From Halarcobacter sp. (lineage in GTDB: Bacteria; Campylobacterota; Campylobacteria; Campylobacterales; Arcobacteraceae), in contig CBDEWB010000018.1 in assembly GCA_965243765.1 (NCBI GenBank), positions 559,314-623,313 on the forward strand: a stretch of DNA of 64,000 nucleotides, in the 5' to 3' direction. Each line of letters opens with the position of its first letter. Position 1 is the stretch's first letter. The notes under the pieces are model-generated. The model saw nothing but the letters and a program-made list of their open reading frames with translations. It was not told the DNA's origin and did no database searches. The translations under genes were made by a program, and so were the position numbers. This document shows positions 2,997 to 63,723 of this stretch, one piece after another.

Positions 2997-3995
2997 ATGA
3001 AGAAAGTTAATTTAGTTAAATTAGGTTTAGTTGGTCTTGGATTGTTAATGGGGGTAAGTCAAGTTGATGCTCAAGCATCAAGTGTAAAAAACGAAAAACA
3101 AATATTATTACGTTTGGCGGAAAATCAACCTGAAACAAATCCTGTTACTGTTGCTATGAGAAAATTTTCTTCATTAGTTAAAGAAAAAACAAATGGAAGT
3201 GTTATTATTGAAGTGTATGCTAGCGCACAACTAGGAAGTGAATCAGAAAACATAGAACAAGTACAAGCAGGTATCTTAGATATGGCAAGAGTTAATTCTG
3301 TTACTCTGGCTCAATTGGTTTCCCCTTTTAAGGTTTTTACATTACCTTATATATTTGAAAACCAAGAACATAAATTTAAAGTTTTAAATGGAGAGATTGG
3401 AAAGAAGGTACTCGAGTCATTAGATAGATTTAATATGATAGGTTTTGATTATTTAGAGGCAGGTACACGTAACTTTTATACAGTGAAAAAACCAATTAAA
3501 TCAGTATCAGATTTAAAAGGACAAAAAATAAGAGTTCAAAAATCAGAAGTGGTTATAAAAATGGTTAAACTATTAGGTGGTATACCAACTCCTATGAATT
3601 ATGGAGAAGTATTTACTTCATTACAAACAGGTGTTATTGATGGGGCTGAAAATGATTTTGTAAGTTATTCAACGTCTGGACACTCAGAAGTAGCAAAGCA
3701 TTACACATTAGATGGACATTTAAGTCCTCCAGCATTAGTTATTATTAGTAAAAGAAGCTGGGCTAAATTGTCTAAGAAACAGAAAATTGCCGTTAGAGAA
3801 GCTTCAAAAGAAGCAACTGAATTTGAAATCAAAGCTATGAACGCAAAACAATTAGAGTTTCAAGAAAAAGTAGAAAAATCGGGTACTAAGATTTACTCTG
3901 TTAACGTGAGAGAATTTCAGGACAGGCTAGCACCTTTATATAATGATTACCCAGAATTTTCGGAAGTTATTAAAAGTATTCGTGCTTTACAATAG
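2997..3995 (+). CDS. dctP: TRAP transporter substrate-binding protein
   Basis: Signal peptide; QLGSE, DLKGQKIRV, PTPMNYGEVFTSLQTGVIDGAEN. Confidence 0.93.
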   Translation: MKKVNLVKLGLVGLGLLMGVSQVDAQASSVKNEKQILLRLAENQPETNPVTVAMRKFSSLVKEKTNGSVIIEVYASAQLGSESENIEQVQAGILDMARVNSVTLAQLVSPFKVFTLPYIFENQEHKFKVLNGEIGKKVLESLDRFNMIGFDYLEAGTRNFYTVKKPIKSVSDLKGQKIRVQKSEVVIKMVKLLGGIPTPMNYGEVFTSLQTGVIDGAENDFVSYSTSGHSEVAKHYTLDGHLSPPALVIISKRSWAKLSKKQKIAVREASKEATEFEIKAMNAKQLEFQEKVEKSGTKIYSVNVREFQDRLAPLYNDYPEFSEVIKSIRALQ

Positions 3996-4017
3996 CATTT
4001 AATTTAAGGGGTTTGAT

Positions 4018-4497
4018 ATGAAAAAATATTTTCAATTTCTTGATTACGTTTCAAGTTTAATGACAAAAATTTGTTCTGTAATCTTATTATTAATGTTAGT
4101 AATTACTTTTGCACAAGTAGTATTGAGGTATGTGTTTAATAGCCCCCTTATTTGGGCGTCAGAGGTGACTATCCTTATGCTTATATGGTTTGGATTTATA
4201 GTTATGTCACTTGCTGTATATGCTAATGAGCATATTTCCTTGGAGTTTCTCTATGATAAACTCCAAGAGAAAGTACAAAAAACGTTAGATTGCATTAAGT
4301 ATTTTCTTCTTGGTTGCTTTGCTCTTTTGATGATATATTATGGATTTCAATTAGTTGATTTAACTAAATATGCTACTTTACCTGCCTCAGGTTTGAGCAA
4401 AAGTTATCTTTACTTAATTTTAATTTTTTCAGGTGTAATAATACTTATTGCATCAATTAGTAATTTTATAAAATTATTTACACAACCTGGGAGTTAA
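4018..4497 (+). CDS. dctQ: TRAP transporter small permease
   Basis: About four hydrophobic segments; QVVLRYVFN..WASEV; lies between dctP and dctM. Confidence 0.9.
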   Translation: MKKYFQFLDYVSSLMTKICSVILLLMLVITFAQVVLRYVFNSPLIWASEVTILMLIWFGFIVMSLAVYANEHISLEFLYDKLQEKVQKTLDCIKYFLLGCFALLMIYYGFQLVDLTKYATLPASGLSKSYLYLILIFSGVIILIASISNFIKLFTQPGS

Positions 4498-4498
4498 T

Positions 4499-5791
4499 AT
4501 GATAGTTGAATACGATGGAATAGTCTTATTATTTTTATTATTGTTTGTATTTATGTTCGCAAGAATACCCATTGCATTTTCTTTGGGATTAAGTTCTATA
4601 ATTACAGCTTTTTATCTTGACATTCCCATAATGTTTTTATTCCAAAACATGGTTAATGGATTAGACAGTTTTACTTTTTTAGCTGTACCATTTTTTATAC
4701 TCGCAGCACAAATTATGACAGAAGGCGGAATCAGTGATAAGCTCATGAGTTTGGCGAATGTTTTCGTAGGTCGTATTAGAGGTGGAAAGGCAATGGTAAA
4801 TGTAGTTACTAGTATGTTTTTTGGAGGTGTATCTGGTTCTTCTGTGGCAGATGTATCTTCAATTGGTTCCTTTATGATTCCAGCTATGAAAAAAGATAAA
4901 TATGATGCTGACTTTAGTGTTGCTGTTACTGTTACTTCTTCTATTCAAGGAGTAATTATTCCTCCTAGCCAAAATATGATTTATTATGCTATTGCTGCAG
5001 GAGGGATATCAATTAGCCAGCTTTTTATTGCAGGAATAGTTCCTGGAATAATCTTAGGTGCTGGTTTAATGTTAGTTACTTATATTATAGCTGTAAAAAG
5101 AAACTATCCCGTAGGCGAAAAAATTACCTTAAAAAATTCTTTATATATTATAAAAGATGCAGTGTGGGGTTTATTCACGGTAGTTATTATTTTAGGTGGT
5201 ATTATATTTGGTATTTTTACTGCTACAGAATCAGCTGCTATTGCCTGTGTTTGGGCTATTCTTGTTACTGCTTTTATATACAAAAATATGACATGGGAAA
5301 AAATTACTTCAATTTTTAACTCCTCAACTAAAACACTTGCAATGATTATTGCTATTATTGCTACTTCCTCAATGTTTGGATTTATGCTTGCTTATCTAAA
5401 AATCCCACTGGCTTTGTCAACCTTATTTTTGAGTTTTTCTGATAATCCAATTATAATTATTTTATGTATAAATGTTTTGTTATTGGTATTAGGAATGTTT
5501 ATGGATATGGGAGTGTTAATACTTTTATTAACTCCAATTTTATTGCCCGTAGCTGTTGCTCTTGGCTTTGATCCTATACATTTTGGAATAATTATGATAT
5601 TAAATTTAGGTTTAGGTTTATGCACTCCTCCCGTTGGCACCTCTCTATTTATAGGGTGTGCAATAGGAGAAATTAGTATGGAGCAGTCATTAAAAGCATT
5701 TATCCCTTTTTATGCCACTATTCTCATTATTTTAGTACTAATTATAGCTTTTCCAGGTATATCATTATGGTTACCTAGTGTTATTGGTTAA
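4499..5791 (+). CDS. dctM: TRAP transporter large permease
   Basis: AVPFFILAA, FFGGVSGSSVAD, IIPPS, FTATESAA, GLCTPPVG. Confidence 0.93.
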   Translation: MIVEYDGIVLLFLLLFVFMFARIPIAFSLGLSSIITAFYLDIPIMFLFQNMVNGLDSFTFLAVPFFILAAQIMTEGGISDKLMSLANVFVGRIRGGKAMVNVVTSMFFGGVSGSSVADVSSIGSFMIPAMKKDKYDADFSVAVTVTSSIQGVIIPPSQNMIYYAIAAGGISISQLFIAGIVPGIILGAGLMLVTYIIAVKRNYPVGEKITLKNSLYIIKDAVWGLFTVVIILGGIIFGIFTATESAAIACVWAILVTAFIYKNMTWEKITSIFNSSTKTLAMIIAIIATSSMFGFMLAYLKIPLALSTLFLSFSDNPIIIILCINVLLLVLGMFMDMGVLILLLTPILLPVAVALGFDPIHFGIIMILNLGLGLCTPPVGTSLFIGCAIGEISMEQSLKAFIPFYATILIILVLIIAFPGISLWLPSVIG

Positions 5792-5823
5792 ACTGTTGCA
5801 AAATTTAGAACAATGGATTTAAT

Positions 5824-6522
5824 ATGGAACTAGAAGATAACAAAAATTATTTAGAGTATTTAAATACTGTAACGATTATAAAAAACAAGACTATACAAAA
5901 ACAAGTGTACAAAATATTACTAAATATGATACTTAAAGGTATTATGCATTCTAATCAATCTATTTCAGAAGTTAAAATTGCTAATGCACTTAATATAAGT
6001 AAAAGTCCCGTAAGGGAGTCATTAAAAATGCTGGAAAATAAACAGTTGGTTAAAATTGTACCGAATAGTAAGTCCTATATTATGCCAATTGATTTAAAAA
6101 AAATATATAATTCTGCAAAAATCAGAGAAGCTTTAGAACTTTTAATTGTAGAGGAAGCTATTAATAATATTAATGACGAAGATATCAAATCGCTAGAGCT
6201 AATTATAAAACAACAAGAATCAGCAATTAAAAATTCTAAACCCGAGGAATTCTTTTACTATGATGAAGTTTTTCATAATAAAATTATAGATATTTCGAAA
6301 ATACCGGAAGCATTGAATATTATTGAAGATCTTAAAATTCATATAAATAGAATTAGATTTGCTAACAACTACAATTGTAGTGGAAATCCAAGCATACTTG
6401 TTGATCATAAAAATATTTTAAATGCAATAAAAGCAAAAGATGTAGTGATAGCTAGACTTTTTACAAGTATACATTTGTCTAAGGTTCTCAACTTAATGTT
6501 AAATTCATCGAATAACAGCTAA
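5824..6522 (+). CDS. GntR family regulator (FCD/FadR-like C-terminus)
   Basis: N-terminal wHTH (IANALNISKSPVRESL); C-terminal DEVFH and DHKNIL. Confidence 0.88.
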   Translation: MELEDNKNYLEYLNTVTIIKNKTIQKQVYKILLNMILKGIMHSNQSISEVKIANALNISKSPVRESLKMLENKQLVKIVPNSKSYIMPIDLKKIYNSAKIREALELLIVEEAINNINDEDIKSLELIIKQQESAIKNSKPEEFFYYDEVFHNKIIDISKIPEALNIIEDLKIHINRIRFANNYNCSGNPSILVDHKNILNAIKAKDVVIARLFTSIHLSKVLNLMLNSSNNS

Positions 6523-6572
6523 ATCATATTAAATGAAAACACTTTATAATAATAGAAGTAAGGATGTAAATG

Positions 6573-7592
6573 ATGTTACTTAATAATAATACGTATAAAA
6601 ACATTTCATCTTAAAATTATGACCGAAATGATGTGGATACATCTATTGTACATATTGGACTTGGAGCTTTTTTAAAAGCCCATTTTGCGGTATACGTAGA
6701 TGATTATAATAAGATATCAAAAGATGTGCATTTAATTGAAGCAATAAGTCTAAGAAGCAATAATTCAAAAAAAATCATGAGTAAACAGGATAATTTATAT
6801 ACTGCTCATGAAGAGTCTGGAAAGTCTTCTTCTTATAGTTTAATTAAGTCAGTTAAAAAATCACTATTTTTAACTAAGAATAGAAAGTATATAAACGATC
6901 TAGCCCTTTCCGAAAATATCAAATTAATTACTTTAACTATAACGGAAAAAGGTTATTGTTATAGCCCCTCTTTAAATGGTCTTAATGTAAATAACCCAGA
7001 AATAATACATGACTTGAAAAACCTCAAAGAATGTAAAACAGCGATTGCATTGATTTTTAGTATCTTAAAAAATAGAAAAGAGGCAAATATTGGAGGTTTA
7101 ATTGTTCTTTCTTGTGATAATTTACCTTCAAATGGAAATATTTTAAGAAAAGTTATACTTAATTTTGCTTCCTTAATAAATAAAGAATTAGAAATATGGA
7201 TAAGTAAAAATTGTGCGTTCCCTTCTTCTATGGTAGATAGAATAGTCCCAAAAGTTACAGAAAAAACTTTATCAAAAATTCATGACAAATTAAAAATTCA
7301 AGATAACGCTGCCGTTTTATCAGAAGACTTTAAACAATTTATAATTGAAGATTGGTTTATAGATGGAAGTAAACTTAAACTAGATAAAGTTGGTGTTATT
7401 TTTGTGAAGAATATAAAACCTTATGAAAGTATGAAGCTTAGAATTCTAAATGGAACGCACTCCGCTTTATCTTATATTGGGCTATTATTGAACAAGGAAA
7501 CTATCTCTGAAGCCATAAATGATACTGAATTAGAAAAATTTATTTTAAATATGGTAACTAATCACTCTAGGAAACCTCAAAAAGAATTCTAA
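6573..7592 (+). pseudogene. Mannitol dehydrogenase family (fructuronate reductase-like); early nonsense codon and IS66 truncation
   Basis: ATG 6573 after AGGA reads MLLNNNTYKNISS*NYDRNDVDTSIVHIGLGAF (TAA at 6612-6614); TITEKGY, SCDNL, FPSSMVDRIVP and KLRILNGTH present; native sequence ends at 7553 where IS66 begins. Confidence 0.85.
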
Positions 7593-9085
7593 TATTTACC
7601 TCAATAAATAGTAATTTAAAGCCTATAAATAGGACTAATTAGCTATAATTCACTACATAAAAAGTAGGAATAAATTTTGAAGAAAATTCGCCTGAAATAT
7701 CAATTTTCAATAAAATCCAAAAAAGAACTTAAAGATTTATCCCATAAAGAGCTTCTTAAATATATAGAAAACCTTCAAGATAACCTCGTGCAAGAAAAAC
7801 CACCAAAGAATTCAAACAACTCCAGTATTTCACCATCAAGTGAGATAGCACCTCCTCAAAAAAGAAATAATAAAAATCAATCTCTTGAAGAGAAGAGTGG
7901 TAAAAGTGTTGGTGGACAATCAGGGAGAGAGGGAGTAACTCTTTTACAAAGTGATACTCCTGATGAGATTGTTGCATTGCCTTATAAACTATTAGAATGT
8001 AAAAAGTGCAGTAGTGATATATCTACTGTTGTATCTGCACTCAAAGAAAGACGACAAGTCTTAGATATTGAATTATCATCTATTACTCATAAAATAACAG
8101 AGTATCAAAGCTTCTCTAAAAAGTGTTTCTCTTGTGGTTATGAAAATCATGACAGTAGTGCATTTACAATATCACCAAATATCAGTTATGGGTCAACAGT
8201 TATAGCTATGGTTTCATACCTAAGTGTTTCTCAGTATATGTCAAATATGAGAATAGTAGAACTTATGAACAACCTATTCAATATAAAACTCTCAGAGGGA
8301 AGCATTACAGGCTTATTAGCAAAAGCCTCAGCACTCTCACAAAATACTATTAACAAAATCACAGCTCTACTGGAGAAAGCTCCTCTAGTAGGTATAGATG
8401 AGACTGGATGTAAGGTTAATGGCTCTAAACATTGGCATTGGACTTTTCACAATGAGAGCAATACTCTTATTGTTGCGGATAAGTCACGAGGAACTAAGGT
8501 CATCAACAATACTTTTACAAATGGTTTTAAAAATGCTTGTGTGGTTCATGATAATTATTCATCATATAGCTCACTTGAGTGTGTTAGTGAACAGTTATGT
8601 TTAGCACACAAGATGAGAGATTTAAACTATGCTATTGAGTGTGATGAGACTAAGCTAATGAAAGATATAAAGACATTACTCAAAGAAGCTATAAGAGATG
8701 ATAAAGTCAACTTAACTTCCATTGCTAGAGTAACTCTAAAAAGTCAATATGACAAATCACTTCAACATCTTTTAACTATGCCATACATTGAAAAAAGTGA
8801 AACGCATAAACAAATAAAATCACTTACAAAATCTAAAGATAAACTGTTTACTTTTTTACTTAATGAAAATATCCCAGCAGATAATAATGCTAGTGAGCGT
8901 GCCATTAGAAATATAAAAGTTAAGCAAAAAGTATCAGGACAATTCAAATCACTTGAGGGTGCACAAAATTATGCTAATTTACGATCAGTTATTGATACTT
9001 CTCGTAAGCGTGGCTTAAATGAGTTTGAATCATTGGTTTCTGTAATGAAGGGGAATTCTCTCTTTTAGATAGGGTGATTAGTTAC
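7554..9085 (+). mobile_element. IS66 family element, single-ORF (ISBst12-like) type, 1532 bp
   Basis: Terminal inverted repeats GTAACTAATCACTCTA (7554-7569) and TAGGGTGATTAGTTAC (9070-9085), 15/16 match; no target duplication in the flanks. Confidence 0.9.
7677..9068 (+). CDS. IS66 family transposase, intact frame
   Basis: PPKNSNNSSISPSS, C4 zinc finger, IDETG, VVHD, CLAH, DNNASERAIR. Confidence 0.92.
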   Translation: MKKIRLKYQFSIKSKKELKDLSHKELLKYIENLQDNLVQEKPPKNSNNSSISPSSEIAPPQKRNNKNQSLEEKSGKSVGGQSGREGVTLLQSDTPDEIVALPYKLLECKKCSSDISTVVSALKERRQVLDIELSSITHKITEYQSFSKKCFSCGYENHDSSAFTISPNISYGSTVIAMVSYLSVSQYMSNMRIVELMNNLFNIKLSEGSITGLLAKASALSQNTINKITALLEKAPLVGIDETGCKVNGSKHWHWTFHNESNTLIVADKSRGTKVINNTFTNGFKNACVVHDNYSSYSSLECVSEQLCLAHKMRDLNYAIECDETKLMKDIKTLLKEAIRDDKVNLTSIARVTLKSQYDKSLQHLLTMPYIEKSETHKQIKSLTKSKDKLFTFLLNENIPADNNASERAIRNIKVKQKVSGQFKSLEGAQNYANLRSVIDTSRKRGLNEFESLVSVMKGNSLF

Positions 9086-9298
9086 AATAAATAAATTTAG
9101 GTATTAATTTTCAATATTAGAAACTTATTGTAGTAATTTATTTTAAACTAAATATAATATTACAAGCTTGTCTGTGTCGTTTATTCGCACTTATTAAGAA
9201 AATAGTTTTATACTTATAATATATTTTTATTTTTAACAAATATTTAACTGAAATTGTAGGAAACTATTGTGTATAATTTATTAAAAAATGGAGAAAAG

Positions 9299-10945
9299 AT
9301 GAAAGCATCTGATTTATTTATAAAAGCTTTAGAGAATGAAGGTGTTGAATATATTTTTGGTATTCCAGGCGAAGAGAACTTAGATTTCTTAGAATCACTA
9401 AGACAGTCTGATATCAAACTTATTTTAACAAGACATGAACAAGGTGCTGGTTTTATGGCAGCAACGTATGGAAGATTAACTGGAAAAGTTGGTGTTTGTT
9501 TAGCAACACTTGGTCCTGGAGCTACAAATTTTGCAACAGCAGCAGCTTATGCACAACTTGGTGGAATGCCAATGATGATGATAACTGGTCAAAAACCAAT
9601 TAAAAAATCAAAACAAGGTAAATTTCAAATTATTGATATTGTTGGAATGATGAAACCAATGACAAAATATGCTAAACAAGTTGTAAATGGAAATAATATT
9701 CCATCAATGGTTAGAGAAGCATTTAAAATAGCAACAACTGAGAGACCTGGTGCTGTTCATATTGAATTACCTGAAGATATTGCACAAGAAGAAGTAGAAG
9801 ACAACATCTATCCTGTGCAAAACTTTAGATATCCAAATGCAGATAAAATAACAGTTTTAGATGCTGTTAAAATGATTGAAAAAGCAAAAAGACCTCTTTT
9901 ACTTATTGGAGCTGGAGCTAATCGACATAGAATTGGCGATGCATTGACAAACTTTGTAAACGAAACTGGTATTCCTTTCTTCTCAACACAAATGGGTAAA
10001 GGTGTAATTGATGAAAATCATAAACTTTGTTTAAGTACCGCTGCTTTATCTGCTGATGATTTTATTCATTGCGCGATTGAAAGAGCTGATTTGATTATAA
10101 ATGTAGGTCATGATGTAATTGAAAAACCACCATTTTTTATGGAAAATCACAAAGATGCAACAAAAGTATTACATGTAAACTTTTTTCCTTCAGAAGTAGA
10201 TGACACTTACTTCCCTCAGCTAGATATGATTGGGGATATTGCAGGAAATGTTGAAAAAATGACAAATGCAATTTCAAAACAAGAACATTGGGATTTTGAT
10301 TATTATATTAGACTAGCTGATGATATTAGAACTAAACTTTCTAAATATTTTGGAGATACAAGATTTCCAATTTTACCACAAAGAGTAGTTAGAACTATTA
10401 GACAAACTTTAAATGCAAAAGATATTGTAACACTTGATAATGGTGTTTATAAAATCTGGTTTGCAAGAAACTATAGATGTGCACAACCAAATACACTATT
10501 ATTAGATAATGCACTTGCAACTATGGGTGCTGGACTTCCTTCTGGAATGGCTGCTAAAATGGTAAGACCTGATTGTAGAGTTGTTTCTGTTTGTGGAGAT
10601 GGTGGTTTTATGATGAACTCACAAGAAATGGAAACTGCAGTAAGATTAAATCTTGATTTAACAATTGTTATTTTAAATGATAACTCTTATGGAATGATTA
10701 AGTGGAAACAAGCAGGTATGGGATTTGAGAACTATGGTTTAGATCTTGGAAATCCTGATTTTATTAAATATGCAGAAGCTTATGGAGCAAGTGGGCATAG
10801 ACCAACATCTTGTGAAGATTTTGAACAAATTTTAGACAAATGTGTAAATGGAAAAGGTGTTCACTTAATTGATTTAGCTGTTGATTACTCTTTAAATCAT
10901 TCAATTTTAAATGATTTACTAGCTAAAAAACAATGTATGATATAA
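9299..10945 (+). CDS. ThDP-dependent enzyme of the acetolactate-synthase-large-subunit family; possibly a 2-oxoacid decarboxylase
   Basis: GIPGEEN, RHEQGA, TLGPGATN, GDGGFMMN..E..ILND ThDP motif; start placed at ATG 9299 after GGAG; no ilvH small subunit nearby. Confidence 0.85.
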   Translation: MKASDLFIKALENEGVEYIFGIPGEENLDFLESLRQSDIKLILTRHEQGAGFMAATYGRLTGKVGVCLATLGPGATNFATAAAYAQLGGMPMMMITGQKPIKKSKQGKFQIIDIVGMMKPMTKYAKQVVNGNNIPSMVREAFKIATTERPGAVHIELPEDIAQEEVEDNIYPVQNFRYPNADKITVLDAVKMIEKAKRPLLLIGAGANRHRIGDALTNFVNETGIPFFSTQMGKGVIDENHKLCLSTAALSADDFIHCAIERADLIINVGHDVIEKPPFFMENHKDATKVLHVNFFPSEVDDTYFPQLDMIGDIAGNVEKMTNAISKQEHWDFDYYIRLADDIRTKLSKYFGDTRFPILPQRVVRTIRQTLNAKDIVTLDNGVYKIWFARNYRCAQPNTLLLDNALATMGAGLPSGMAAKMVRPDCRVVSVCGDGGFMMNSQEMETAVRLNLDLTIVILNDNSYGMIKWKQAGMGFENYGLDLGNPDFIKYAEAYGASGHRPTSCEDFEQILDKCVNGKGVHLIDLAVDYSLNHSILNDLLAKKQCMI

Positions 10946-10978
10946 TATAACAAATATATAAATAAAGAAGGGGGAAAA

Positions 10979-12370
10979 ATGAATACAATAGAAGTAAGAT
11001 CGCCATTTGATGATAAAGTAGTAGGAATAGTACCGTTTTCATCAGTAGAAGAAGTAGAAACTGCAATAAATTTAGCAAAAGCAACTTTTGATAATCATAA
11101 AAATGCACTTCCTAAATATAAGCGAATAGAAATTTTAGAAAATGTAGTAAAAATAATGGAAGGACAAATTGAAGAATTAACAATTCTTTGTGCTTCTGAG
11201 GGTGGAAAACCTTATATGGATTCTAAAGTAGAAATTATTAGAGCAATACATGGTGTGAAACTTGCTATTGAATCATTAAGTTCATTTAAAGGAACTGAAA
11301 TAGCTATGGGACATACTGTTTCAAGTGCAAATAGAATGGCTTATACTTTTAAAGAACCAATTGGTGTAGTTGCTGCTGTATCTGCATTTAATCATCCTTT
11401 TAATCTTGCAATTCATCAAGTAATCCCTGCAATCGCTGTTGGGTGTTCTGTTATTATTAAACCAGCAACACAAACTCCAATGTCAGCTGTTAAATTAATA
11501 GAAATATTAAAAGAAGCTGGACTTCCAAAGGGTTGGGCACAAGCTGTTGTTTGTGGAAGAGAAGCTGGTGAATTACTTGCAACATCTCCTAAAATTAACT
11601 TCTTAACTTTTATAGGTTCTGCAAAAGTTGGTTGGTACTTAAATTCTAAAGTAGCTAATGGAACTAGAGTTGCCTTAGAACATGGTGGAGTTGCTCCTGT
11701 GATTGTAGAAGCTGATGCAGATATTGATGATTTAATTCCTTCAATTGGAAAAGGTGGTTTTTACCATGCAGGTCAAGTTTGTGTATCAGTTCAAAGAGTA
11801 TATGTTCATGCATCAATTGTAGATATTGTAGCTTCTAAACTAAGTGATTATGCATCTCAATTAGTTGTTGGAGATCAATTAAATCCTAAAACTGAAGTTG
11901 GTCCATTAATTAATCATAATGAAGTAAATAGAGTTGAAGAATGGGTTAATGAAGCTATTACTAAAGGTGGGGAAATATTAACAGGTGGAAAAAGAATTTC
12001 TAATTCATTATATGAACCAACTGTTATTTTAAATCCAGCTGATGATGCTTTAGTATCTACTAAAGAAGTCTTTGGACCTGTTGTTTGTATTTATTCATAT
12101 TCTGATATTGAAGATGCTTTTGATAGAGCAAATTCTTTAGAAGTATCTTTTCAAGCTGCAATTTTCACTAAAAATATTGATACTGCTTTAAAAGCAGTAA
12201 AAAGATTAAATGGAACTGCTGTAATAGTAAATGATCATACTGCTTTTAGAGTAGATTGGATGCCATTTGGAGGAGCTAATGCTTCTGGACTTGGGATGGG
12301 TGGAATTCATCATTCTATGATTGAAATGAGTAAAGAAAAACTAATGATTATTAAATCAAGCTCTTTATAA
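10979..12370 (+). CDS. Aldehyde dehydrogenase, resembles the RL0313/ALDH21-like subgroup
   Basis: SAFNHPFNL, IKPA, FIGSAKVG, LEHGG, GQVCVS, EVFGPV, NDHTAFRVDWMPFGG. Confidence 0.9.
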   Translation: MNTIEVRSPFDDKVVGIVPFSSVEEVETAINLAKATFDNHKNALPKYKRIEILENVVKIMEGQIEELTILCASEGGKPYMDSKVEIIRAIHGVKLAIESLSSFKGTEIAMGHTVSSANRMAYTFKEPIGVVAAVSAFNHPFNLAIHQVIPAIAVGCSVIIKPATQTPMSAVKLIEILKEAGLPKGWAQAVVCGREAGELLATSPKINFLTFIGSAKVGWYLNSKVANGTRVALEHGGVAPVIVEADADIDDLIPSIGKGGFYHAGQVCVSVQRVYVHASIVDIVASKLSDYASQLVVGDQLNPKTEVGPLINHNEVNRVEEWVNEAITKGGEILTGGKRISNSLYEPTVILNPADDALVSTKEVFGPVVCIYSYSDIEDAFDRANSLEVSFQAAIFTKNIDTALKAVKRLNGTAVIVNDHTAFRVDWMPFGGANASGLGMGGIHHSMIEMSKEKLMIIKSSSL

Positions 12371-12387: not shown

Positions 12388-12421
12388 AAAAAGGAAAGAG
12401 TTTATAACTTTTTCCTTTTTT
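12388..12421 (+). terminator. Intrinsic terminator after the ALDH gene
   Basis: AAAAAGGAAAGAGT-loop-ACTTTTTCCTTTTTT hairpin with T tail. Confidence 0.7.
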
Positions 12422-12612
12422 ATTGGAATCAAAATAAATAAAATAGGAGAGTGTAAACTCAAGTGTATAAACCCGCCAATTATCCTCTAACTACTTTATA
12501 TATTTTTCCATAATCTAGCTGAAAAATATGCATAGTTGAGGATAAATTTCAGACCAGTTTTTAACTTTCTAACTTTTCCATTTATTTTGAACTTCTTGGA
12601 TTGATAAATACA

Positions 12613-13575
12613 TTACCTGTTTAGTCCCAAAGACTTACTCAAAGGATTCAACTTAAAGTACTCTGGGTTTTTCCTGAATATTTGAGACATTGTATCATAA
12701 GGTGTTTTATACTTTAAAGCTTTGAGTTTTTTCTGATAATTATATAAAAGAAGAAAGCTCATCAAGTGTAACTTTAGAGCTTTTAAGGTCTCATAATGAA
12801 AAAGTTTCACAGTATGGTCTTTAAGAACTTTATTCATCACTTCTACCTGACCATTAGTCCAAGGATGTCTAAACTTAGTCAAACGGTGTTCTATTTTATA
12901 CTTTTGGCATACTATATCAAAAGGATGAATCTTATCTTTTGGTCTTAAATGTTCACTTAGAAGTGCATAAGTAAATTGAGCTCCATTATCTGTTAAAATA
13001 GTATGGATTTTAAAAGGTATATCTTGTATAAAGTTTTCTAAGAATGAACAAGCGATAGCCTGAGTCATTCTTTCATGAATTTCCACATAAGTATACTTAG
13101 TAGCACGATCTATAGCTACGAACATATAGGCTTTGCCTTCTTCACTATGAACTTCTGAAATATCTATATGGACATATCCTATATCATACTCTTTGAACTT
13201 CTTTTTTTCTGTTTTATCACGGGGTTCTTTGGGCAAACGGCTTAATCCATGACGTTGCAAGCATCTGTGTAAGTTTGACCTTGTCATTTTAGGTATCTCA
13301 TCCATCAGGGCTATAAAAACATCATCTAGTGCAAACTTGGTAACTCTTCTAAACTCACAAATTATTTGTTCTTCTTCTTGACTTAGTACTGTTGACCTTG
13401 CTATCGTCGGTCCACTTTTTTTATCAGTGATTCTATTGGCATTCTTCCATTTTGTTACTGTTTTTGGATTAAGGAACAATCTTGCAGCTAACTCTGTGAT
13501 TGTCTCTTGAGACTCTTGTATTTCTTTTCGAATTCTTGGCGTCGTCTTGGCATTAGAGTGTTGTATATTTCCCAT
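12613..13575 (-). CDS. IS481 family transposase, intact
   Basis: HSNAKTTPRIR N-terminus, VHIDI, ILTDNG, HPWTNGQVE (DDE/rve core). Confidence 0.92.
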   Translation of the reverse strand: MGNIQHSNAKTTPRIRKEIQESQETITELAARLFLNPKTVTKWKNANRITDKKSGPTIARSTVLSQEEEQIICEFRRVTKFALDDVFIALMDEIPKMTRSNLHRCLQRHGLSRLPKEPRDKTEKKKFKEYDIGYVHIDISEVHSEEGKAYMFVAIDRATKYTYVEIHERMTQAIACSFLENFIQDIPFKIHTILTDNGAQFTYALLSEHLRPKDKIHPFDIVCQKYKIEHRLTKFRHPWTNGQVEVMNKVLKDHTVKLFHYETLKALKLHLMSFLLLYNYQKKLKALKYKTPYDTMSQIFRKNPEYFKLNPLSKSLGLNR

Positions 13576-13819: not shown

Positions 13820-14163
13820 GGATGCCTAAAAACTTAAGTTAGCTTAGGTACTATATGGGCTAAAAAGGATTTATTTACAAATGGCTATAAAAAAGTACTA
13901 AAACTTGTCCAAAGTGTCAATCTAAACTAACTAAAAAGAATGGCAAACGAAGAGGTATACAAAGATACAAATGTGCCAATTTCACCAGAAGATGATTGTA
14001 AAAAGATATATAACTCATCATACAACAAATAGTATTGATGGTGGTGTATTCTCTAATCTCAAAAAGTTAGCAAAAGTATATCCAGGAATATTAGAAAATA
14101 TGAAGATTAAAATTATAGATGAATTCTTTTATAACTATAATAATAAGTTATAAATTAGCCTCC
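13820..14163 (+). mobile_element. Internally deleted IS256/IS1249-type (Zn-binding variant) element
   Basis: KTCPKCQSKLTKKNGKRRGIQRYKC zinc ribbon joined to the C-terminal TTNSIDGGVFSNLK..KIIDEFF; ends GGATGCCTAA and TTAGCCTCC. Confidence 0.7.
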
Positions 14164-57003: not shown

Positions 57004-60000
57004 ATGAATTACAAAAAAATATTTACAGGATTATTATTTGCAATAATAACCATAATAAGCACAGGGTGTGGTGAACATAGCTTCTTTGATAAAGCTGATG
57101 ACACTGCTTCATCATCTATTATTATGCTACATGGAAATATTGCAAAAGGACCTATATATAAAGCAGAAGTAAAAGCATTTAGACTGGATACTAATAAATT
57201 ATTAAATACCGTGCTAACAGATATTAAAGGAGATTACTCTTTAGATATTGGTACATACACAGGAGCTATTAAAGTTACTGCAAAAGGTGGTAGTTATATT
57301 GATGAAATTTCAGGCATAAAACAAGACGCAAAAGATTTAAACTTAGAAGCTATTTCTGTGATATCTGATGATAAAAAAGTTAAAACAGTAAATGTTACGC
57401 CTGTGACTGATATAGCTGCACAAGAGTTAGAAGATATGTACGAAGATATCACTAAACTTGCAAATAAAAAAAGTATAATTGAAGATGTAAATAAAAATAT
57501 AGCAAGAATTTTAACAGGAAGTAGTTTTAATCCTACAAAAGTTAAACCTAAAATCTTAGGTAAAGACAAAATTGAACTAGATGATGGAGATGCAGGGAAA
57601 TATGGTACTTTTCTAGCTGTATTTGCTAAATTGTCAGATAGTAAAGTATCAAATGTAAAAGCAAAAATTGAAAATTTTTATAATGATATTAAAGATAATG
57701 GTGTATTAAGTGAAGACTCTAATACGAAGATAAAAGGTGCTCTTGAAGATAACACTATCAAAAAAGGTATCAACACTGAAGTAATAACTTTTATTAAAAA
57801 TCAACAAAAGACATATGACATAACTCCAATAATAACTGGAACTCTAATCAAAACCAATCAAAAAAGAGAAGGAAAAACAGAATTTACTCTAAGCGTTAAA
57901 GATATTGACACCAAAGTACTTGTTCACTTTAAAAATAAAAAATCATTTGCCACTTTTGAGGCAAAAGATGAAAATGGTAAAGATATTGTTTATATAAACA
58001 ACGACTCAACAGTCACAGTGATAATTACAAATAGTAAAGATTTTAATGAAACAAGAAGTGTTACACTTTCAGTTGGTAAAGAAACGGTTACATTAAGCAG
58101 TACAAGCAATAAAGAAACTACCTCTAATCTTAGTGAGAGTGAATCAAAACCGTTTAACTTGATAAGTAAAATAAGCTATAACTTAAATTTCAATAAGCAC
58201 TTTAGTGACCCAGATGATAATGATAAATTCAAAACTAAACCATATGAGACTAACGAATGGCAGACTACCTTGACATTTACTACTAAAAGTCCACTACCTA
58301 AGGGAATCATATTGGATACAAACGGTCTTTTAAATGGTGCTTCAGAAGAACCAAAACCAAAAACATTTCCAATTACGATAACAGCAACAGATATCTATAA
58401 GAATACAATAACTAGAACTGTCAGCTTAAATGTTTCAGTTAAACCACAAGTAGCAAGTATTGAATTAAAATCTCCTAACTCTACAAGACTAAAAGAAAAT
58501 CAAACAGTACAAGCAACACTAAAATTTAATCAAGATATAAATATTACAACAGCTGGGACTATGGAAATTACATTTGCCAATAATGCAGGTACTACAGGTA
58601 GTTTTGATATACCACAGGGGAATATTTCACAAGATACAGGTATAGAGATTACAATAACAGCAGGTAGTGGAAGTATTTCTGAAGTAATTGCTTCTAAGAT
58701 TACTTTAGTTGATACAGAAATTACAAATTTTTTAACTATTGCAGGGCAAGAGGTTAAAAATTTAGCAATAGATAACGCTGCACCTCTTTGGACGAGTGTG
58801 AGTAATATATATGTAAGTGAAGATACAGGTACAGATACTGTTATTTATACATCAAAGGTAAACGATGATGATAAGGACGTAACTTATAGTATCTCTGATG
58901 ATAATTTTACTATTACAACAAAAGGTAAGTTAAGCTTAAAAAAAGCTTTAGATTATGAAACAACAAAAAAGTATACTTTAGAGATTACTGTAAAAGATAG
59001 CCTTTTAAATAGTTCTGCTAAAACAGTAACTATAAACGTAACAAATGTATTAGATACGCCACCTCTTTTAGCTACTCCAAAAACAACAGAAAATATAGCA
59101 GAAGATATAAAAAAAGGTACATCTATAGCTACAATTTCAAGTGCTTTAAATGCTTTAGAAGATCAAAAAATAATTGATAGTTTTACGATAACAAGTGGTG
59201 ATGATAATAATAATTTTACTGTTAATAACAAAGGGGTAGTAAAAATAGCAGAAAAGAGTCATATTGATTTCTCTGTAAATACTACTCATACGTACATTTT
59301 AAAAATAAGTGCTTCAAATAAGGCAGGAGCTAGTAAGAAAGTAACGTTAAATATTCCAGTTACAAATGTTAATGAAATTACAGCTAAAGATGACAAAAAA
59401 ACTATGAAAAATACCGAGAACTCTATAATTATAGATGTTCTTGCTAATGATGATAAAGGGATAGATAACAAAGATTTAACTATTAAAAGTGTAACAGTAC
59501 CCAATATTGGTACAGCTGAAATTATAGATGACAATAAGATAAAATATACAAACACTTCTACAGACACAGGAACTATTTCTTTTACTTATACCATGACTAA
59601 TGGGGAAGATGACAACACCGCAAATGTAAATATCTCTATAATTGATGCAACTTTAGTACCAGATGCTCCTACTGTAAATACTATTGCAGATGATGATATT
59701 ATAAATTCCCTTGAGAGTAAAAGTGCTGTAAATATTACAGGAACTGCTACACCTGATATAAAAGTAACCGTTACTTATAATGATATTTCAAAAACAGTTA
59801 AAAATGTAGGTTCAGATGGAAAATGGAGTGTAAAATATGAGGTAACAGAACTTCCTAGCAATGGAACATCATCAGAGGTAGTAGCATATACTACTACTGT
59901 TTTTGGTACGGAGAGTCTTAAGAGCAAAAAAACTCTTAAAATAGATACGACTAAACCAACAGTTACAATTACTAATGATAAGAGTGTGGATACATTAAAC

Positions 60001-63000
60001 AAAACTGATAATACCGTAACTTTTACATTTTCTTTTAGCGAAGAAATAAAGAGTTTTACTGCGAATGATATTACTGTACAAAATGGAGAAAAATCTACTT
60101 TTAAATCAGTAATTACTGATAAAAAGTGGACTTTAGCTGTAATAGCAAATGATAATAGCACAAAAGCTATTACTGTAAGTATTAATCTAGATATAGAAGA
60201 TAAAGCAGGAAATAAGCTTAGTAGTGAAGGAAATAAACTTGATGATGAAAAGAAACTAGTTTCTAAAAGTATTAAAGTTGATACAAGAGAGGTAACTCTT
60301 GAGGTAACTTTTCCTATTATGGAAGATGGTATTATCTCTAAAGCTGAAGAGGAAAGAGTTATTATAAGTGGTACTACTAACGGTAGGAAAGTAGAAGTGA
60401 CAATTGCTACACTTGACAAAGTAGATGCCAATGTAAATGATGATGGAAAATGGGCTACTAAAGGAATTAATATAAGTTCATTGCCTGAAGGTGCACTTAC
60501 TTTAGTGATTAAAGCTTCTAAAAATGGTAATATAAAAACTCTAACTTATAATGATAAAATATTAAAAGATACACTTAGTCCTACAATATCTGAGCTTATT
60601 ATTCCTACAACCTCTTTACTTAATGAAAATGAATTTAAGATTAGTTTTAAATTTGATACATTTGTAACACCTATGAAACTTCCAATGAAAGATAATTTTA
60701 TATTAAAAAATGTAGATTTGATATCAAATGTTTATAACCCGACAAGTAAAATTTATACTGTTACCTTTAAACCCAAAGATGATGACGAAGGTACTTTAAA
60801 AATCATTTTAAACAAAAATGCTGTAGAAAGTATTGCAGGAAATGGAAATAAGGAAAAAGATTTATATACACGTAGTTTTAATTCTAAGTATCCAACAATT
60901 ACTATAACCTCACATAAAGAAGGTCAATTTATTGATGAAAGTGAAGCTTTAGACATAACTCTTAAAGGTAAAACAAAAAATGCAATAAAACCAAGTAAAG
61001 TTACTATCACAAATGTAACAACAAATAAGATTATAGGGACTACAACAGTTGATGAAAATAATAAATGGAGTCAACATATTACAGGATTAATCCAAGAGAT
61101 ACAAAAGTTGTATACAGGTACCAAGCCATTAGTAAGCTATAAAACTAAAGACAATTATGCTACGATTAGTAGTAATTCTCAGGGGTTTAATGATTTGAGA
61201 AATTTATTTGATGGAAATAAGCAATATGGCAAGAGTTATTCTACAGATTTTGGCAGATACAAAAATGGTGCAACATTTACTATAACTTTTACAAACCCAC
61301 AATTTATAAAATTCATTGATATTTGGGGTGGAGCTAGAAATTATGCCCTCAATGCAAGATGGGATTTTTACGATACAGATAAAAATATAGTAAAAACTAT
61401 ACAAAAAGATAAGTATGATGAAGATAGGTATTATAAAGTATTCCCTCACGTACTTACCCCTATTAAAAAGATAATAGTTACAAAAACAGGAGATGATTGG
61501 TTTTCTTTTAGTGAAATGAAAATCAATGCCATTAATTTAAGTTTTAAAGCTTCTGTTGAAAGTACCACAGGTAACAAAGCTTCAACAAGTATTAATTTTA
61601 ACATTACAAAGCATCCAGATATCACATCTATAAAGTTAGATAAGTCTTTAATACTTAATGGCAAAACAATGCAAATAACTGTGAACTTTGATACAAAAAT
61701 TAAGACTAGTACATTTACAAAAGATGATTTCATAGTTACAAATGGGGAAATAAATAGTATAAACTTTACTACAGTGGATAATAAAACAGTAGCAACTGCC
61801 ATATTTATTCCAACTCCCGAAATAGATGCATCAGTTAATACCATAAAGATTGGAAAAGATTGGAAAAATTTTGCGGGTATTAATGCATCAGAAAAATATG
61901 AAAGTGAAAATTATAAAATTTATACAAAGCTTACAGTAGTAAACCAAGTGAGTTTTGCTTTACATTCTACCCCATATCATATAGGAGAGAGTGTAAAAAT
62001 AAGAGTTGCTTTTAATAAAAAAGTAACTGTTGCAGGAACTCCTTCTTTAAATATCGGGCTGAACGGGAGTAGTACAACGAAACAAGCAAGCTATCTAAGT
62101 GGAAGTGGTACAAAAATATTGCTTTTTGCATATAGTATAAAAAGTGGCGACAGTGCAACTGCTATCTCAGTTGATGCTGATATAAACGTAAGTAATACTA
62201 ATACGATAAAAGATATAGAATCAACAGCAAACGTTAATCCTGCTTTTACTGCAATAGATCCTGATGATAGACATATAGTAAATACAGATAAAGATGGGAT
62301 TGTTTCTATTATTGTTACATCAAATCCATCTAAGACTTCATATGTAAAAGATGATAAGATTAACTTCAAAGTGACATTTAGTAACGATGTAACAGTAACA
62401 AATACTCCAACTTTAAGTTTAGTTGTAGGTGATAAAACAGTTAAAGCTATATATAAAAATGGAAGCGGTACTAATATAAATTTCACATATACAGTTGAAG
62501 ATAATTCTTTTGATGCAGATGGTATATCTATATCAAAAAATGCTATGCTTTTAGCTGAAGGTACGATCAAAAGTTCTAATGATAGCGTTCTTTTATATAA
62601 TGCTCAAATATCAAATATAAAAGGACAAACTGTAAACTCATTGACTCCTTATATAAAAGATATAACTCTAAGTGCAACAAAATCAGGTTTAAATGAAACA
62701 GCAATTGTAGGAGATACTCTAAAAGCAAGCTTTACTTTTAACTCAAATGTTACCTTAGAAGGAACAGGTATTTCTCTAAAAGCAAAAATTGGGTCAGAAG
62801 ATATAAGTATGGCGTTTTTCTCACAAGAGGCTAATAAGTTAATATTTACTTATACTATTGTAGAAAATGATAGCTCAATTAGTGGGTTTAACCTCATAAA
62901 AAATTCTTTAATTTTAAAAAGTGGTACAACTTTAAAAAGTAGCATAAATGATAAAGATGTAGCCTTAAATCACTTTGCTACAAGTAATAATACAAAAATT

Positions 63001-63723
63001 GATGGTATTAAACCAACTCTTGTAATTACTGCTCCTAAGAAAGTAAATAAAGATTTCACAATAACACTAAGCAGTTCAAAAGAGTTAAGCAGTATAGATA
63101 AGAGTAAGATTAGCGTTTCTGCTCTTTTTGATGTAAGTGAATTCAAGCTTGCAGCGGATAAAAAATCTGCAACTTTAAAAATGACTTTAAAAGCAGATAC
63201 TAAAAGTAATGAAAAAAATCAAGATATAAAAGTAACTTTTCAAGCAGCAGCATTTACAGATACAAGCGGGTTAAAAAGTAAAAAGCAAGAAAAAACTATC
63301 AAATTTGATAATAATACTACACTTAGCATTACAAATCCAATAGAAGATAAGATTTATACTTTAAAAGAGATGCAAAATATGAATATATCAGGTACGACAG
63401 ATGCTGAAGCTGGACAAACAGTAAAAGTAAATGATATTTTTGATGTAGAGGTACAAGCTGATGGAACTTGGAGTAAAAAGGTTAATTTACTTACAAGTAT
63501 TAATACTGCACTTAAGAGTCCTGTCACAAAAGCTTATATAAATGCAAGTGTAAAAGATAAATTAGGTAATAAAGCTAGTGTAACCAAAACTGTAAATATG
63601 GATATCACGGTTCCTACAGTCACAATTACACTAGACAGCACGACAATTCTAGTAGATAAAAAGCTAAAAGCTACTATAAACTTCAATGAGGCAGTACAAG
63701 ATTTTGATATAGATGATATATAA
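57004..63723 (+). CDS. Giant Ig/cadherin-repeat surface lipoprotein (adhesin), 2239 aa, probably prematurely stopped
   Basis: Signal peptide ending ISTG-C22; FSDPD..LPKGI domain, cadherin LDYE, DVLANDD, TIADDDIIN, F(S/N)E..F..DDI and three GSGT-type repeats; the stop falls mid-repeat. Confidence 0.85.
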   Translation: MNYKKIFTGLLFAIITIISTGCGEHSFFDKADDTASSSIIMLHGNIAKGPIYKAEVKAFRLDTNKLLNTVLTDIKGDYSLDIGTYTGAIKVTAKGGSYIDEISGIKQDAKDLNLEAISVISDDKKVKTVNVTPVTDIAAQELEDMYEDITKLANKKSIIEDVNKNIARILTGSSFNPTKVKPKILGKDKIELDDGDAGKYGTFLAVFAKLSDSKVSNVKAKIENFYNDIKDNGVLSEDSNTKIKGALEDNTIKKGINTEVITFIKNQQKTYDITPIITGTLIKTNQKREGKTEFTLSVKDIDTKVLVHFKNKKSFATFEAKDENGKDIVYINNDSTVTVIITNSKDFNETRSVTLSVGKETVTLSSTSNKETTSNLSESESKPFNLISKISYNLNFNKHFSDPDDNDKFKTKPYETNEWQTTLTFTTKSPLPKGIILDTNGLLNGASEEPKPKTFPITITATDIYKNTITRTVSLNVSVKPQVASIELKSPNSTRLKENQTVQATLKFNQDINITTAGTMEITFANNAGTTGSFDIPQGNISQDTGIEITITAGSGSISEVIASKITLVDTEITNFLTIAGQEVKNLAIDNAAPLWTSVSNIYVSEDTGTDTVIYTSKVNDDDKDVTYSISDDNFTITTKGKLSLKKALDYETTKKYTLEITVKDSLLNSSAKTVTINVTNVLDTPPLLATPKTTENIAEDIKKGTSIATISSALNALEDQKIIDSFTITSGDDNNNFTVNNKGVVKIAEKSHIDFSVNTTHTYILKISASNKAGASKKVTLNIPVTNVNEITAKDDKKTMKNTENSIIIDVLANDDKGIDNKDLTIKSVTVPNIGTAEIIDDNKIKYTNTSTDTGTISFTYTMTNGEDDNTANVNISIIDATLVPDAPTVNTIADDDIINSLESKSAVNITGTATPDIKVTVTYNDISKTVKNVGSDGKWSVKYEVTELPSNGTSSEVVAYTTTVFGTESLKSKKTLKIDTTKPTVTITNDKSVDTLNKTDNTVTFTFSFSEEIKSFTANDITVQNGEKSTFKSVITDKKWTLAVIANDNSTKAITVSINLDIEDKAGNKLSSEGNKLDDEKKLVSKSIKVDTREVTLEVTFPIMEDGIISKAEEERVIISGTTNGRKVEVTIATLDKVDANVNDDGKWATKGINISSLPEGALTLVIKASKNGNIKTLTYNDKILKDTLSPTISELIIPTTSLLNENEFKISFKFDTFVTPMKLPMKDNFILKNVDLISNVYNPTSKIYTVTFKPKDDDEGTLKIILNKNAVESIAGNGNKEKDLYTRSFNSKYPTITITSHKEGQFIDESEALDITLKGKTKNAIKPSKVTITNVTTNKIIGTTTVDENNKWSQHITGLIQEIQKLYTGTKPLVSYKTKDNYATISSNSQGFNDLRNLFDGNKQYGKSYSTDFGRYKNGATFTITFTNPQFIKFIDIWGGARNYALNARWDFYDTDKNIVKTIQKDKYDEDRYYKVFPHVLTPIKKIIVTKTGDDWFSFSEMKINAINLSFKASVESTTGNKASTSINFNITKHPDITSIKLDKSLILNGKTMQITVNFDTKIKTSTFTKDDFIVTNGEINSINFTTVDNKTVATAIFIPTPEIDASVNTIKIGKDWKNFAGINASEKYESENYKIYTKLTVVNQVSFALHSTPYHIGESVKIRVAFNKKVTVAGTPSLNIGLNGSSTTKQASYLSGSGTKILLFAYSIKSGDSATAISVDADINVSNTNTIKDIESTANVNPAFTAIDPDDRHIVNTDKDGIVSIIVTSNPSKTSYVKDDKINFKVTFSNDVTVTNTPTLSLVVGDKTVKAIYKNGSGTNINFTYTVEDNSFDADGISISKNAMLLAEGTIKSSNDSVLLYNAQISNIKGQTVNSLTPYIKDITLSATKSGLNETAIVGDTLKASFTFNSNVTLEGTGISLKAKIGSEDISMAFFSQEANKLIFTYTIVENDSSISGFNLIKNSLILKSGTTLKSSINDKDVALNHFATSNNTKIDGIKPTLVITAPKKVNKDFTITLSSSKELSSIDKSKISVSALFDVSEFKLAADKKSATLKMTLKADTKSNEKNQDIKVTFQAAAFTDTSGLKSKKQEKTIKFDNNTTLSITNPIEDKIYTLKEMQNMNISGTTDAEAGQTVKVNDIFDVEVQADGTWSKKVNLLTSINTALKSPVTKAYINASVKDKLGNKASVTKTVNMDITVPTVTITLDSTTILVDKKLKATINFNEAVQDFDIDDI

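Follow-up and report, generated by a model that had tools for sequence, protein, structure and literature searches.

A candidate two-gene operon for a coenzyme A- and ferredoxin-independent step from 2-oxoglutarate to succinate in Halarcobacter

How is 2-oxoglutarate turned into succinate in bacteria that lack succinyl-CoA synthetase (SucCD)? In genome papers, a tricarboxylic acid (TCA) cycle without this enzyme has been described for Arcobacter butzleri (2007) and A. thereius (2017), with no explanation offered. The question is raised by two genes in a stretch of 64,000 nucleotides from Halarcobacter sp. of the Arcobacteraceae (assembly GCA_965243765.1, contig CBDEWB010000018.1, positions 559,314 to 623,313 of the forward strand), which is called the window below. 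Two co-oriented open reading frames (ORFs) lie on its + strand, separated by a spacer of 33 nt. The first (9299–10945) encodes a thiamine diphosphate (ThDP)-dependent enzyme of 548 aa with the database name 'acetolactate synthase large subunit', which we predict, from its Pfam domains, the NCBIfam model NF006187 and a comparison with cyanobacterial 2-oxoglutarate decarboxylase (KGD), to be a 2-oxoglutarate decarboxylase. The second (10979–12370) encodes an ALDH21-like aldehyde dehydrogenase (ALDH) of 463 aa, predicted from its PF00171 domain, its matches in the PDB and a conserved residue triad to be a succinic semialdehyde dehydrogenase (SSADH). We consider it probable that the two genes form a bicistronic operon that converts 2-oxoglutarate to succinate independently of coenzyme A (CoA) and ferredoxin. 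The case is built on family membership, conserved residues, synteny, gene fusions and phyletic pattern; the substrate, the cofactor preference, the flux and a link to oxygen tolerance are what we infer from these.

A bypass composed of OgdA (KGD) and SsaD is established in cyanobacteria, with Synechococcus PCC 7002 A2770/A2771, Synechocystis Sll1981 and Microcystis MaKGD as examples (PMC5160925, PMC10418658). We compared the ThDP enzyme of the window with this family. It carries the Pfam TPP_enzyme_N, M and C domains, and the best of all models was NF006187 (PRK08322; 872.7 bits against a cut-off of 509), to which NCBI gives the name "acetolactate synthase large subunit". Its scores lay under the cut-offs of the AlsS models (NF006378, 447.2 versus 510; TIGR02418, 402.8 versus 551) and of the IlvB model (TIGR00118, 393.8 versus 538). 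KGD orthologues were found via four peptides translated from the mutagenesis primers of MaKGD (supplement of PMC10418658), and a degenerate DNA pattern for the peptide NDGGYGLIEW pulled KGD loci from metagenome contigs. One metagenome ORF matched all four peptides exactly, and many others did so with one or two substitutions at most; a search with the peptides in the 150 best cluster representatives gave distant look-alikes only. The KGD orthologue L054 scored 876.2 bits on NF006187 and was 43% identical to the window enzyme over 536 residues. Because L054 scores at this level, the family that NCBI calls 'acetolactate synthase' includes the cyanobacterial 2-oxoglutarate decarboxylase.

As a control on the NF006187 cut-off, Synechococcus elongatus was found below it, and Bacillus subtilis and Methanosarcina acetivorans above it. 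The B. subtilis match is probably AlsS scoring across models, since cyanobacterial KGD in turn obtained a score of 514 with the model for AlsS. By itself, the cut-off thus does not part the families, and the score gap was used instead. Assignment to the same NCBIfam model as cyanobacterial KGD/OgdA bears out the relationship that a preliminary description of this DNA, made from the letters alone, had proposed, and the GxPGEEN N-terminus that it saw as common to both enzymes reads GIPGEEN in the translation. Judged by these comparisons, the window ThDP enzyme and cyanobacterial KGD belong to the same broad family; our claim stops short of orthology in the narrow sense.

In part, the active site points in the same direction. 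In the alignment, the catalytic E50 of MaKGD, its D435 and D462 from the motif that binds the ThDP diphosphate, and its M410, which maintains the V conformation, correspond to E47, D434, D461 and M409 of the window enzyme, and MaKGD K386 and K471 are both kept as K385 and K470. Position 470 is occupied by Lys in the window enzyme, by Q487 in B. subtilis AlsS and by Trp in the genome's own IlvB, and position 385 by Lys, Ala and Gln, respectively; in addition, E26 stands where AlsS has Lys. We take AlsS Q487 and the Trp of acetohydroxyacid synthase to line the substrate/acceptor pocket, and two lysines in that pocket, in place of uncharged residues, would fit a dicarboxylate substrate.

The second enzyme matched PF00171 with 418.6 bits, and its best PDB matches were Burkholderia ALDHs, moss ALDH21 (5MZ5, 288 bits) and a Methanocaldococcus lactaldehyde dehydrogenase. 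In ALDH21 of the moss Physcomitrium patens (PpALDH21), Arg121, Arg457 and Tyr296 hold the carboxylate of succinic semialdehyde (preprint 10.64898/2026.01.13.699213). According to a HMMER alignment to 5MZ5 and a MAFFT alignment, R88, Y262 and R424 of the window ALDH correspond to PpALDH21 R121, Y296 and R457, and the catalytic C268 and E234 correspond to C302 and E267. The motifs quoted in the preliminary description (LEHGG, GQVCVSVQR and NDHTAFRVDWMPF) are all present in the translations of the two genes. The window ALDH probably works like ALDH21.

We further compared 80 loci from named genomes that carry a ThDP gene of the same subclade. They span many lineages, among them Pseudomonas, Burkholderia, Marinobacter, Idiomarina, Alteromonas, Methylophagaceae, Bacteroidota, Planctomycetota, Verrucomicrobiota, Nitrospirota, Methanosarcinales and Woesearchaeota. 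A same-strand ALDH gene was found within 600 nt in 47 out of 77 loci, or in 38/58 where at least 1.5 kb was available on both sides, and it was the sole recurrent neighbour. The partner is not always of one type. ALDHs like that of the window (type A) occur in 22 loci; true ALDH21-type enzymes (type B), 53% identical to moss ALDH21 and with the same triad, are adjacent in 16 loci and lie 0.9–1.5 kb downstream in two more. A genuine GabD (type C; NF008415, 1004 bits versus a cut-off of 828) is encoded 19 nt downstream in Pseudomonas chaetocerotis, and enzymes like cyanobacterial SsaD (type D; best model "NADP-dependent SSADH", PRK09406) are adjacent in seven loci; in Methanosarcinales, Woesearchaeota and Nitrospirota, their gene precedes that of the ThDP enzyme. 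Conversely, a metagenome locus of the cyanobacterial-type clade (L134) has a type-A ALDH downstream. The Arg/Tyr/Arg triad is present in 20/20 type-A and in 16–17 of 17 type-B partners. Such repeated exchange of partners among SSADH-type enzymes points to succinic semialdehyde as the shared intermediate.

Other neighbours were a glutamate-synthase-domain gene directly upstream of the ThDP gene (4 loci), a glutamate dehydrogenase gene within 3 kb (3 loci), an Mqo gene nearby in Marinobacter and sdh/frd at ~6 kb. The glutamate-synthase-domain gene, glutamate dehydrogenase and Mqo, together with the sucC-sucD genes described below, point to 2-oxoglutarate. In Marinobacter and a relative (L161, L167, L192 and L198), a conserved protein of ~674 aa without a Pfam match is encoded directly upstream where the ALDH is not adjacent.

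The two proteins are also found fused in single polypeptides. One fusion of 1016 aa combines a type-A ALDH with a ThDP portion that shares 60% identity with the window enzyme, and a search restricted to fusion-sized proteins returned over 40 prokaryotic clusters in which all four ThDP and ALDH domains are present. Fusions of ~1100 aa occur in eukaryotes, namely liverworts (Riccia, Calypogeia), a fern (Ceratopteris), streptophyte and green algae, a thraustochytrid and a red alga; their ThDP halves are 51–60% identical to the window enzyme and their ALDH halves 55–63% identical to PpALDH21 (P0343–P0369). Y384, K385 and K470 are kept in all 33 fusions checked, as is the ALDH triad, except that one protein shows a gap in the column of R424. 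These fusions physically tie the ThDP subclade to an ALDH family that was assayed as SSADH. The library searched contained no literature match joining ALDH21 with acetolactate synthase.

From the chemistry of both families and, for the substrate, from the comparative evidence above, the reaction can be proposed as follows. K385 and K470 of the ThDP enzyme would probably hold the distal carboxylate of 2-oxoglutarate while the ThDP ylide attacks C2; CO2 would leave, and protonation would free succinic semialdehyde. The carboxylate of the latter would be gripped by R88, Y262 and R424 of the ALDH, C268 would make a thiohemiacetal, hydride would pass to NAD(P)+, and water activated by E234 would free succinate. 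With the pair, the oxidative TCA cycle could thus proceed from 2-oxoglutarate as far as succinate, with a yield of NAD(P)H, in a genome that has 2-oxoglutarate:acceptor oxidoreductase (OOR) and no SucCD.

Close homologues, with 83–93% identity, abound in Halarcobacter, Arcobacter, Aliarcobacter butzleri and Poseidonibacter. Among 400 sampled genomes of the phylum, members of NF006187 were found in 21 out of 23 Arcobacteraceae genomes, a count that also holds for the syntenic pair, and outside this family only in 2/24 genomes of one genus; the pair occurred in 0/118 genomes of one other sampled family and in 2/158 of another. In all 17 distinct loci from Arcobacteraceae and related genomes, the ALDH gene lies 16–78 nt downstream of the ThDP gene, with varying outer flanks, and the pair is 72–89% conserved across the family. 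When 24 Arcobacteraceae genomes were tallied for the pair and for SucCD, 12 had the pair without SucCD, 10 had both, two had SucCD only and none had neither, a pattern rather than a statistical test, since relatives are not independent samples. In one genus (e.g. L027 5898–11334, G324, G352 and G375), the genes for the ThDP enzyme, the ALDH, sucC and sucD follow each other in this order on one strand, so that two alternative routes from 2-oxoglutarate to succinate stand side by side. The window ThDP enzyme shares 88% identity with a sequence labelled as a eukaryotic transcriptome product (P0036, a TRINITY contig), which is most likely Arcobacteraceae contamination of that data set.

In the ThDP tree, the Arcobacteraceae sequences nest in a clade of 14 rows (support 98) with Methylophagaceae, Bacteroidota and a lucinid symbiont. 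This clade, together with the absence of the gene from almost all other genomes sampled in the phylum, suggests that the Arcobacteraceae acquired it horizontally; the claim leaves the direction of transfer aside.

We then examined the TCA genes of the host genome, whose assembly is 98.8% complete and encodes IlvB, IlvH, IolD, OorD/A/B and a pyruvate:ferredoxin oxidoreductase. The preliminary description had proposed checking it for oor and sucCD. OorD, OorA and OorB are all present and over their cut-offs, and for sucCD neither a profile search of the assembly for the Ligase_CoA domain nor a tblastn search with SucC/SucD from a related genome gave a match. A scan for the SENG motif, confirmed with NCBIfam, revealed the 3-oxoacid CoA-transferase subunits ScoA (203 bits against 128.5) and ScoB (280 bits against 243.6), both above the cut-offs given and encoded beside a thiolase ~10 kb from oor. 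A route through OOR and succinyl-CoA:acetoacetate CoA-transferase has been proposed for Helicobacter pylori. In the present genome, an ato/sco-like cluster (C19:908698–912628) comprises CoA-transferase subunits A and B, a probable short-chain fatty-acid transporter and the thiolase.

The GABA shunt was considered as a source of succinic semialdehyde and rejected: no GabT was found over the cut-off, and the class-III aminotransferases were BioA, ArgD, HemL and a broken Dat; the search did not extend to glutamate decarboxylase. A diaminobutyrate-transaminase-like gene at C19:786743–787971 has internal stops (TGA, TAA) in its 3' part, and the parts of an ALDH gene at C20:980461–981715 lie in three different frames; these two genes are probably pseudogenes.

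Several observations weigh against the proposed function. In our trees, which were quick searches, the window ThDP enzyme falls into a subclade separate from the cyanobacterial KGD clade (SH-aLRT, 99–100); of the kinship with cyanobacterial OgdA that the preliminary description had envisaged, the common NF006187 family stands, but the enzyme belongs to a sister subclade rather than to the cyanobacterial clade itself. The placement of AlsS is a polytomy in the unconstrained tree; a tree constrained to keep the NF006187-type set together had a log-likelihood 8.5 higher (p-AU, 0.64), with which a common clade without AlsS is compatible, although not demonstrated. The closest solved structure, PDB 13bb (511 bits), was deposited as 'acetolactate synthase'; it belongs to the Arcobacter-type subclade, sits there on a long branch, and carries Met instead of the Lys385 that is otherwise conserved in the family. 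The function of this subclade is a prediction from comparison. Among the MaKGD residues proposed to contact 2-oxoglutarate, Q254 is not kept and is replaced by S251 in the window enzyme, and the contacts themselves (Q254, K386 and K471) come from docking and not from a crystal structure (PMC10418658).

For its part, the window ALDH exceeds no NCBIfam cut-off. It is 35% identical to PpALDH21, compared with 53% for the Burkholderia-type partners, and these true ALDH21 enzymes are 36% identical to it. Because of this difference, the window ALDH represents a sister group of ALDH21, presumably the group named 'ALDH_RL0313' in CDD, and not ALDH21 proper; with this qualification, the association of its motifs with an RL0313/ALDH21-like group in the preliminary description is supported. 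Moreover, the triad would probably also fit other omega-carboxy aldehydes. Finally, the pair is not a simple replacement of SucCD, since 10 Arcobacteraceae genomes have both, and OorDAB together with ScoAB could already turn 2-oxoglutarate into succinate. The ferredoxin- and CoA-independent route named in the preliminary description is hence supported by the comparative evidence, with the route via OOR and ScoAB remaining as an alternative.

The last point leads to the rival that we take most seriously, namely that the chemistry is as proposed but of minor importance. OorDAB and ScoAB would then carry the main flux, and the pair would be auxiliary or condition-specific, acting for example when OOR is inactivated by oxygen or when CoA or acetoacetate is limiting. 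This is a substantial possibility, although not the one that we favour. All five subunits are over their cut-offs, with scoAB at a short distance from oor; the pair coexists with SucCD in the genomes mentioned above; and H. pylori is counted among the relatives without SucCD (PMC5495459). However, the ato-like surroundings of ScoAB, with a thiolase and a probable fatty-acid transporter, fit acetoacetate use equally, and the conservation of the pair across the family, with its strict synteny, argues for steady selection. The substrate could also be another omega-carboxy 2-oxoacid, such as 2-oxoadipate, decarboxylated to glutarate semialdehyde and then oxidized by the ALDH. The Arg/Tyr/Arg triad and the two lysines mark a distal carboxylate and not a chain length, and one Pseudomonas partner is of the GabD type, a family that also includes the glutarate-semialdehyde dehydrogenase DavD. 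Nevertheless, we regard this as unlikely: the neighbouring genes belong to 2-oxoglutarate, glutamate and TCA metabolism and not to lysine catabolism, the partners include ALDH21 and an SsaD-type ALDH, for which succinic semialdehyde is the assayed substrate, and the module contains no conserved transporter or regulator, as suits a central metabolite.

Slighter still is the chance that the database name is right, and that the enzyme is an acetolactate synthase or pyruvate decarboxylase that uses pyruvate, with the ALDH acting on acetaldehyde or an unrelated aldehyde. The AlsS models are second best (447 and 403 bits), all source annotations and the PDB 13bb entry say acetolactate synthase, and the unconstrained tree leaves the position of AlsS relative to the family unresolved. 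Against this, the protein lies under the AlsS and IlvB cut-offs, and Lys replaces the AlsS Q487 and the IlvB Trp. The ThDP gene has no alsD/budA beside it, either in the window or in relatives, where the ALDH is the sole conserved neighbour (a genome-wide search for alsD was not made). Nor is ilvH or any other ilv gene found near the unit, as the preliminary description had also noted: insertion sequence (IS) elements of the IS66 family on the left and the IS481 family on the right flank it, and a complete ilvB-ilvH pair (IlvB, NF006319, 1033 bits) is located on another contig (C20). An acetolactate synthase frees no aldehyde, and it would therefore leave the ALDH in 47/77 loci and the repeated fusions unexplained. 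In addition, MaKGD, which falls under the same NCBIfam model, gave no aldehyde from pyruvate (PMC10418658).

How, then, does the predicted decarboxylase–SSADH operon compare with known systems? Like the cyanobacterial OgdA/KGD and SsaD, it is a two-gene module of a ThDP decarboxylase and an ALDH, and its decarboxylase resembles KGD in the NF006187 score (873 versus 876 bits), overall identity, GxPGEEN, Glu47, GDGG...ND and both lysines. It differs in its ThDP enzyme, which falls outside the KGD clade into a strongly supported subclade of its own, and in gene order, with the ThDP gene preceding the ALDH gene, whereas the ALDH gene comes first in 48 of the fetched loci with a KGD signature peptide. 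The ALDH is non-orthologous to SsaD (~25% identical) and ALDH21-like. The host genome also has OOR, and we know of no description of cyanobacteria using OOR for the 2-oxoglutarate step. With P. patens ALDH21, an NADP+-dependent SSADH (PDB 5MZ5/5MZ8), the ALDH shares the fold, the catalytic Cys and Glu and the triad, despite the low identity given above. AlsS/BudB (PDB 4RJJ, 1OZF) is the nearest characterized family outside NF006187, with ~300 bits to 4RJJ and the same three-domain ThDP fold, but the window enzyme falls short of both cut-offs, has K385/K470 in place of Ala/Q487 and E26 in place of Lys, and is accompanied by an ALDH and not by alsD. Finally, the genome shares with the TCA cycle of the H. 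pylori type the phylum, the missing SucCD and the presence of OorDAB and ScoAB; the H. pylori route passes through succinyl-CoA and ferredoxin, both of which the ThDP/ALDH pair would bypass. Among the top-ranked literature results, none linked either Arcobacter or Aliarcobacter to a decarboxylase of oxoglutarate or ketoglutarate; the literature mentioning Arcobacter with succinic semialdehyde was unrelated.

The local signals are in keeping with the two-gene unit with its own terminator that had been described before, and both ORFs, their ribosome binding sites (RBSs) and the terminator were recovered. The ThDP ORF is open from 9269 or 9299; its start is most likely ATG 9299, 5 nt before which the sequence reads GGAG as an RBS (9290–9293, + strand). 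A candidate –10 box, TATAAT (9272–9277, +), was obtained by a consensus scan with 10/12 matches; this is a weak candidate, as the count of such sites in the region is not above that of shuffles. The RBS of the ALDH gene, read as GGGGG (10970–10974, +), stands 5 nt before ATG 10979. An intrinsic-terminator-like hairpin with a T-run occupies 12388–12424 (+). The hairpin itself (12388–12420; 15-bp stem, –14.5 kcal/mol, z = –3.8) begins 18 bases past the ALDH stop codon and runs into the T-tract, and 0/200 shuffles fold as well. Its stem is A+T-rich, which is why a consensus terminator scan missed it.

The IS66-family element on the left (7522–9117, +) has imperfect inverted repeats of 48 nt and a transposase at 7677–9068 (NF033517, 241 bits), and the IS481-family transposase gene on the right lies at 12613–13575 on the – strand (NF033577, 232.9 bits versus a cut-off of 224). 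A composite transposon was considered and rejected, since the flanking elements are of different families and the pairs of relatives lie in unrelated, IS-free contexts. The IS66-family element cuts a gene of the mannitol-dehydrogenase family (6633–7592), which ends after ~310 codons with profile positions 1–51 of 190 left of its C-terminal domain; the 3' part was not found downstream of the element. The region 2997–9117, with a trio of the size of a TRAP transporter (332, 159 and 430 aa), a GntR/FCD regulator and this gene, has the appearance of a sugar-acid locus. Between the IS481 transposase gene and uvrA, short frame-shifted ORFs with Cys-rich motifs (CPKCQS...RYKC) at 13838–14153 resemble the remnant of a third IS. 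The window also contains an ORF of 2239 aa at 57004–63723.

We rate the proposed chemistry as the same as that of the cyanobacterial bypass; what appears new is the decarboxylase subclade, the non-orthologous dehydrogenase and a host group with a documented gap. Judging from the family as a whole, thousands of genes named 'acetolactate synthase large subunit', in Pseudomonas, Burkholderia, Marinobacter, Methanosarcinales, Nitrospirota, Planctomycetota and others, probably encode 2-oxoglutarate decarboxylases. If so, the cyanobacterial bypass would be one case of a widespread module in which the ALDH has been swapped several times. A bolder combination of claims can be advanced only tentatively: that the Arcobacter-type subclade is a second and far wider lineage of 2-oxoglutarate decarboxylases, gained from a donor near marine Gammaproteobacteria or Bacteroidota, that it is the main oxidative link where SucCD is absent, and that the ALDH21 fusions of plants and algae convert 2-oxoglutarate to succinate in one polypeptide. 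In that case, the fusions of the ThDP enzyme with ALDH21 would account for the source of the substrate of the cytosolic plant SSADH. For the Arcobacter relatives themselves, the ThDP/ALDH operon is a candidate for closing the SucCD gap in the TCA cycle without CoA or ferredoxin, and it may bear on respiration at oxygen levels that their Campylobacter relatives avoid.

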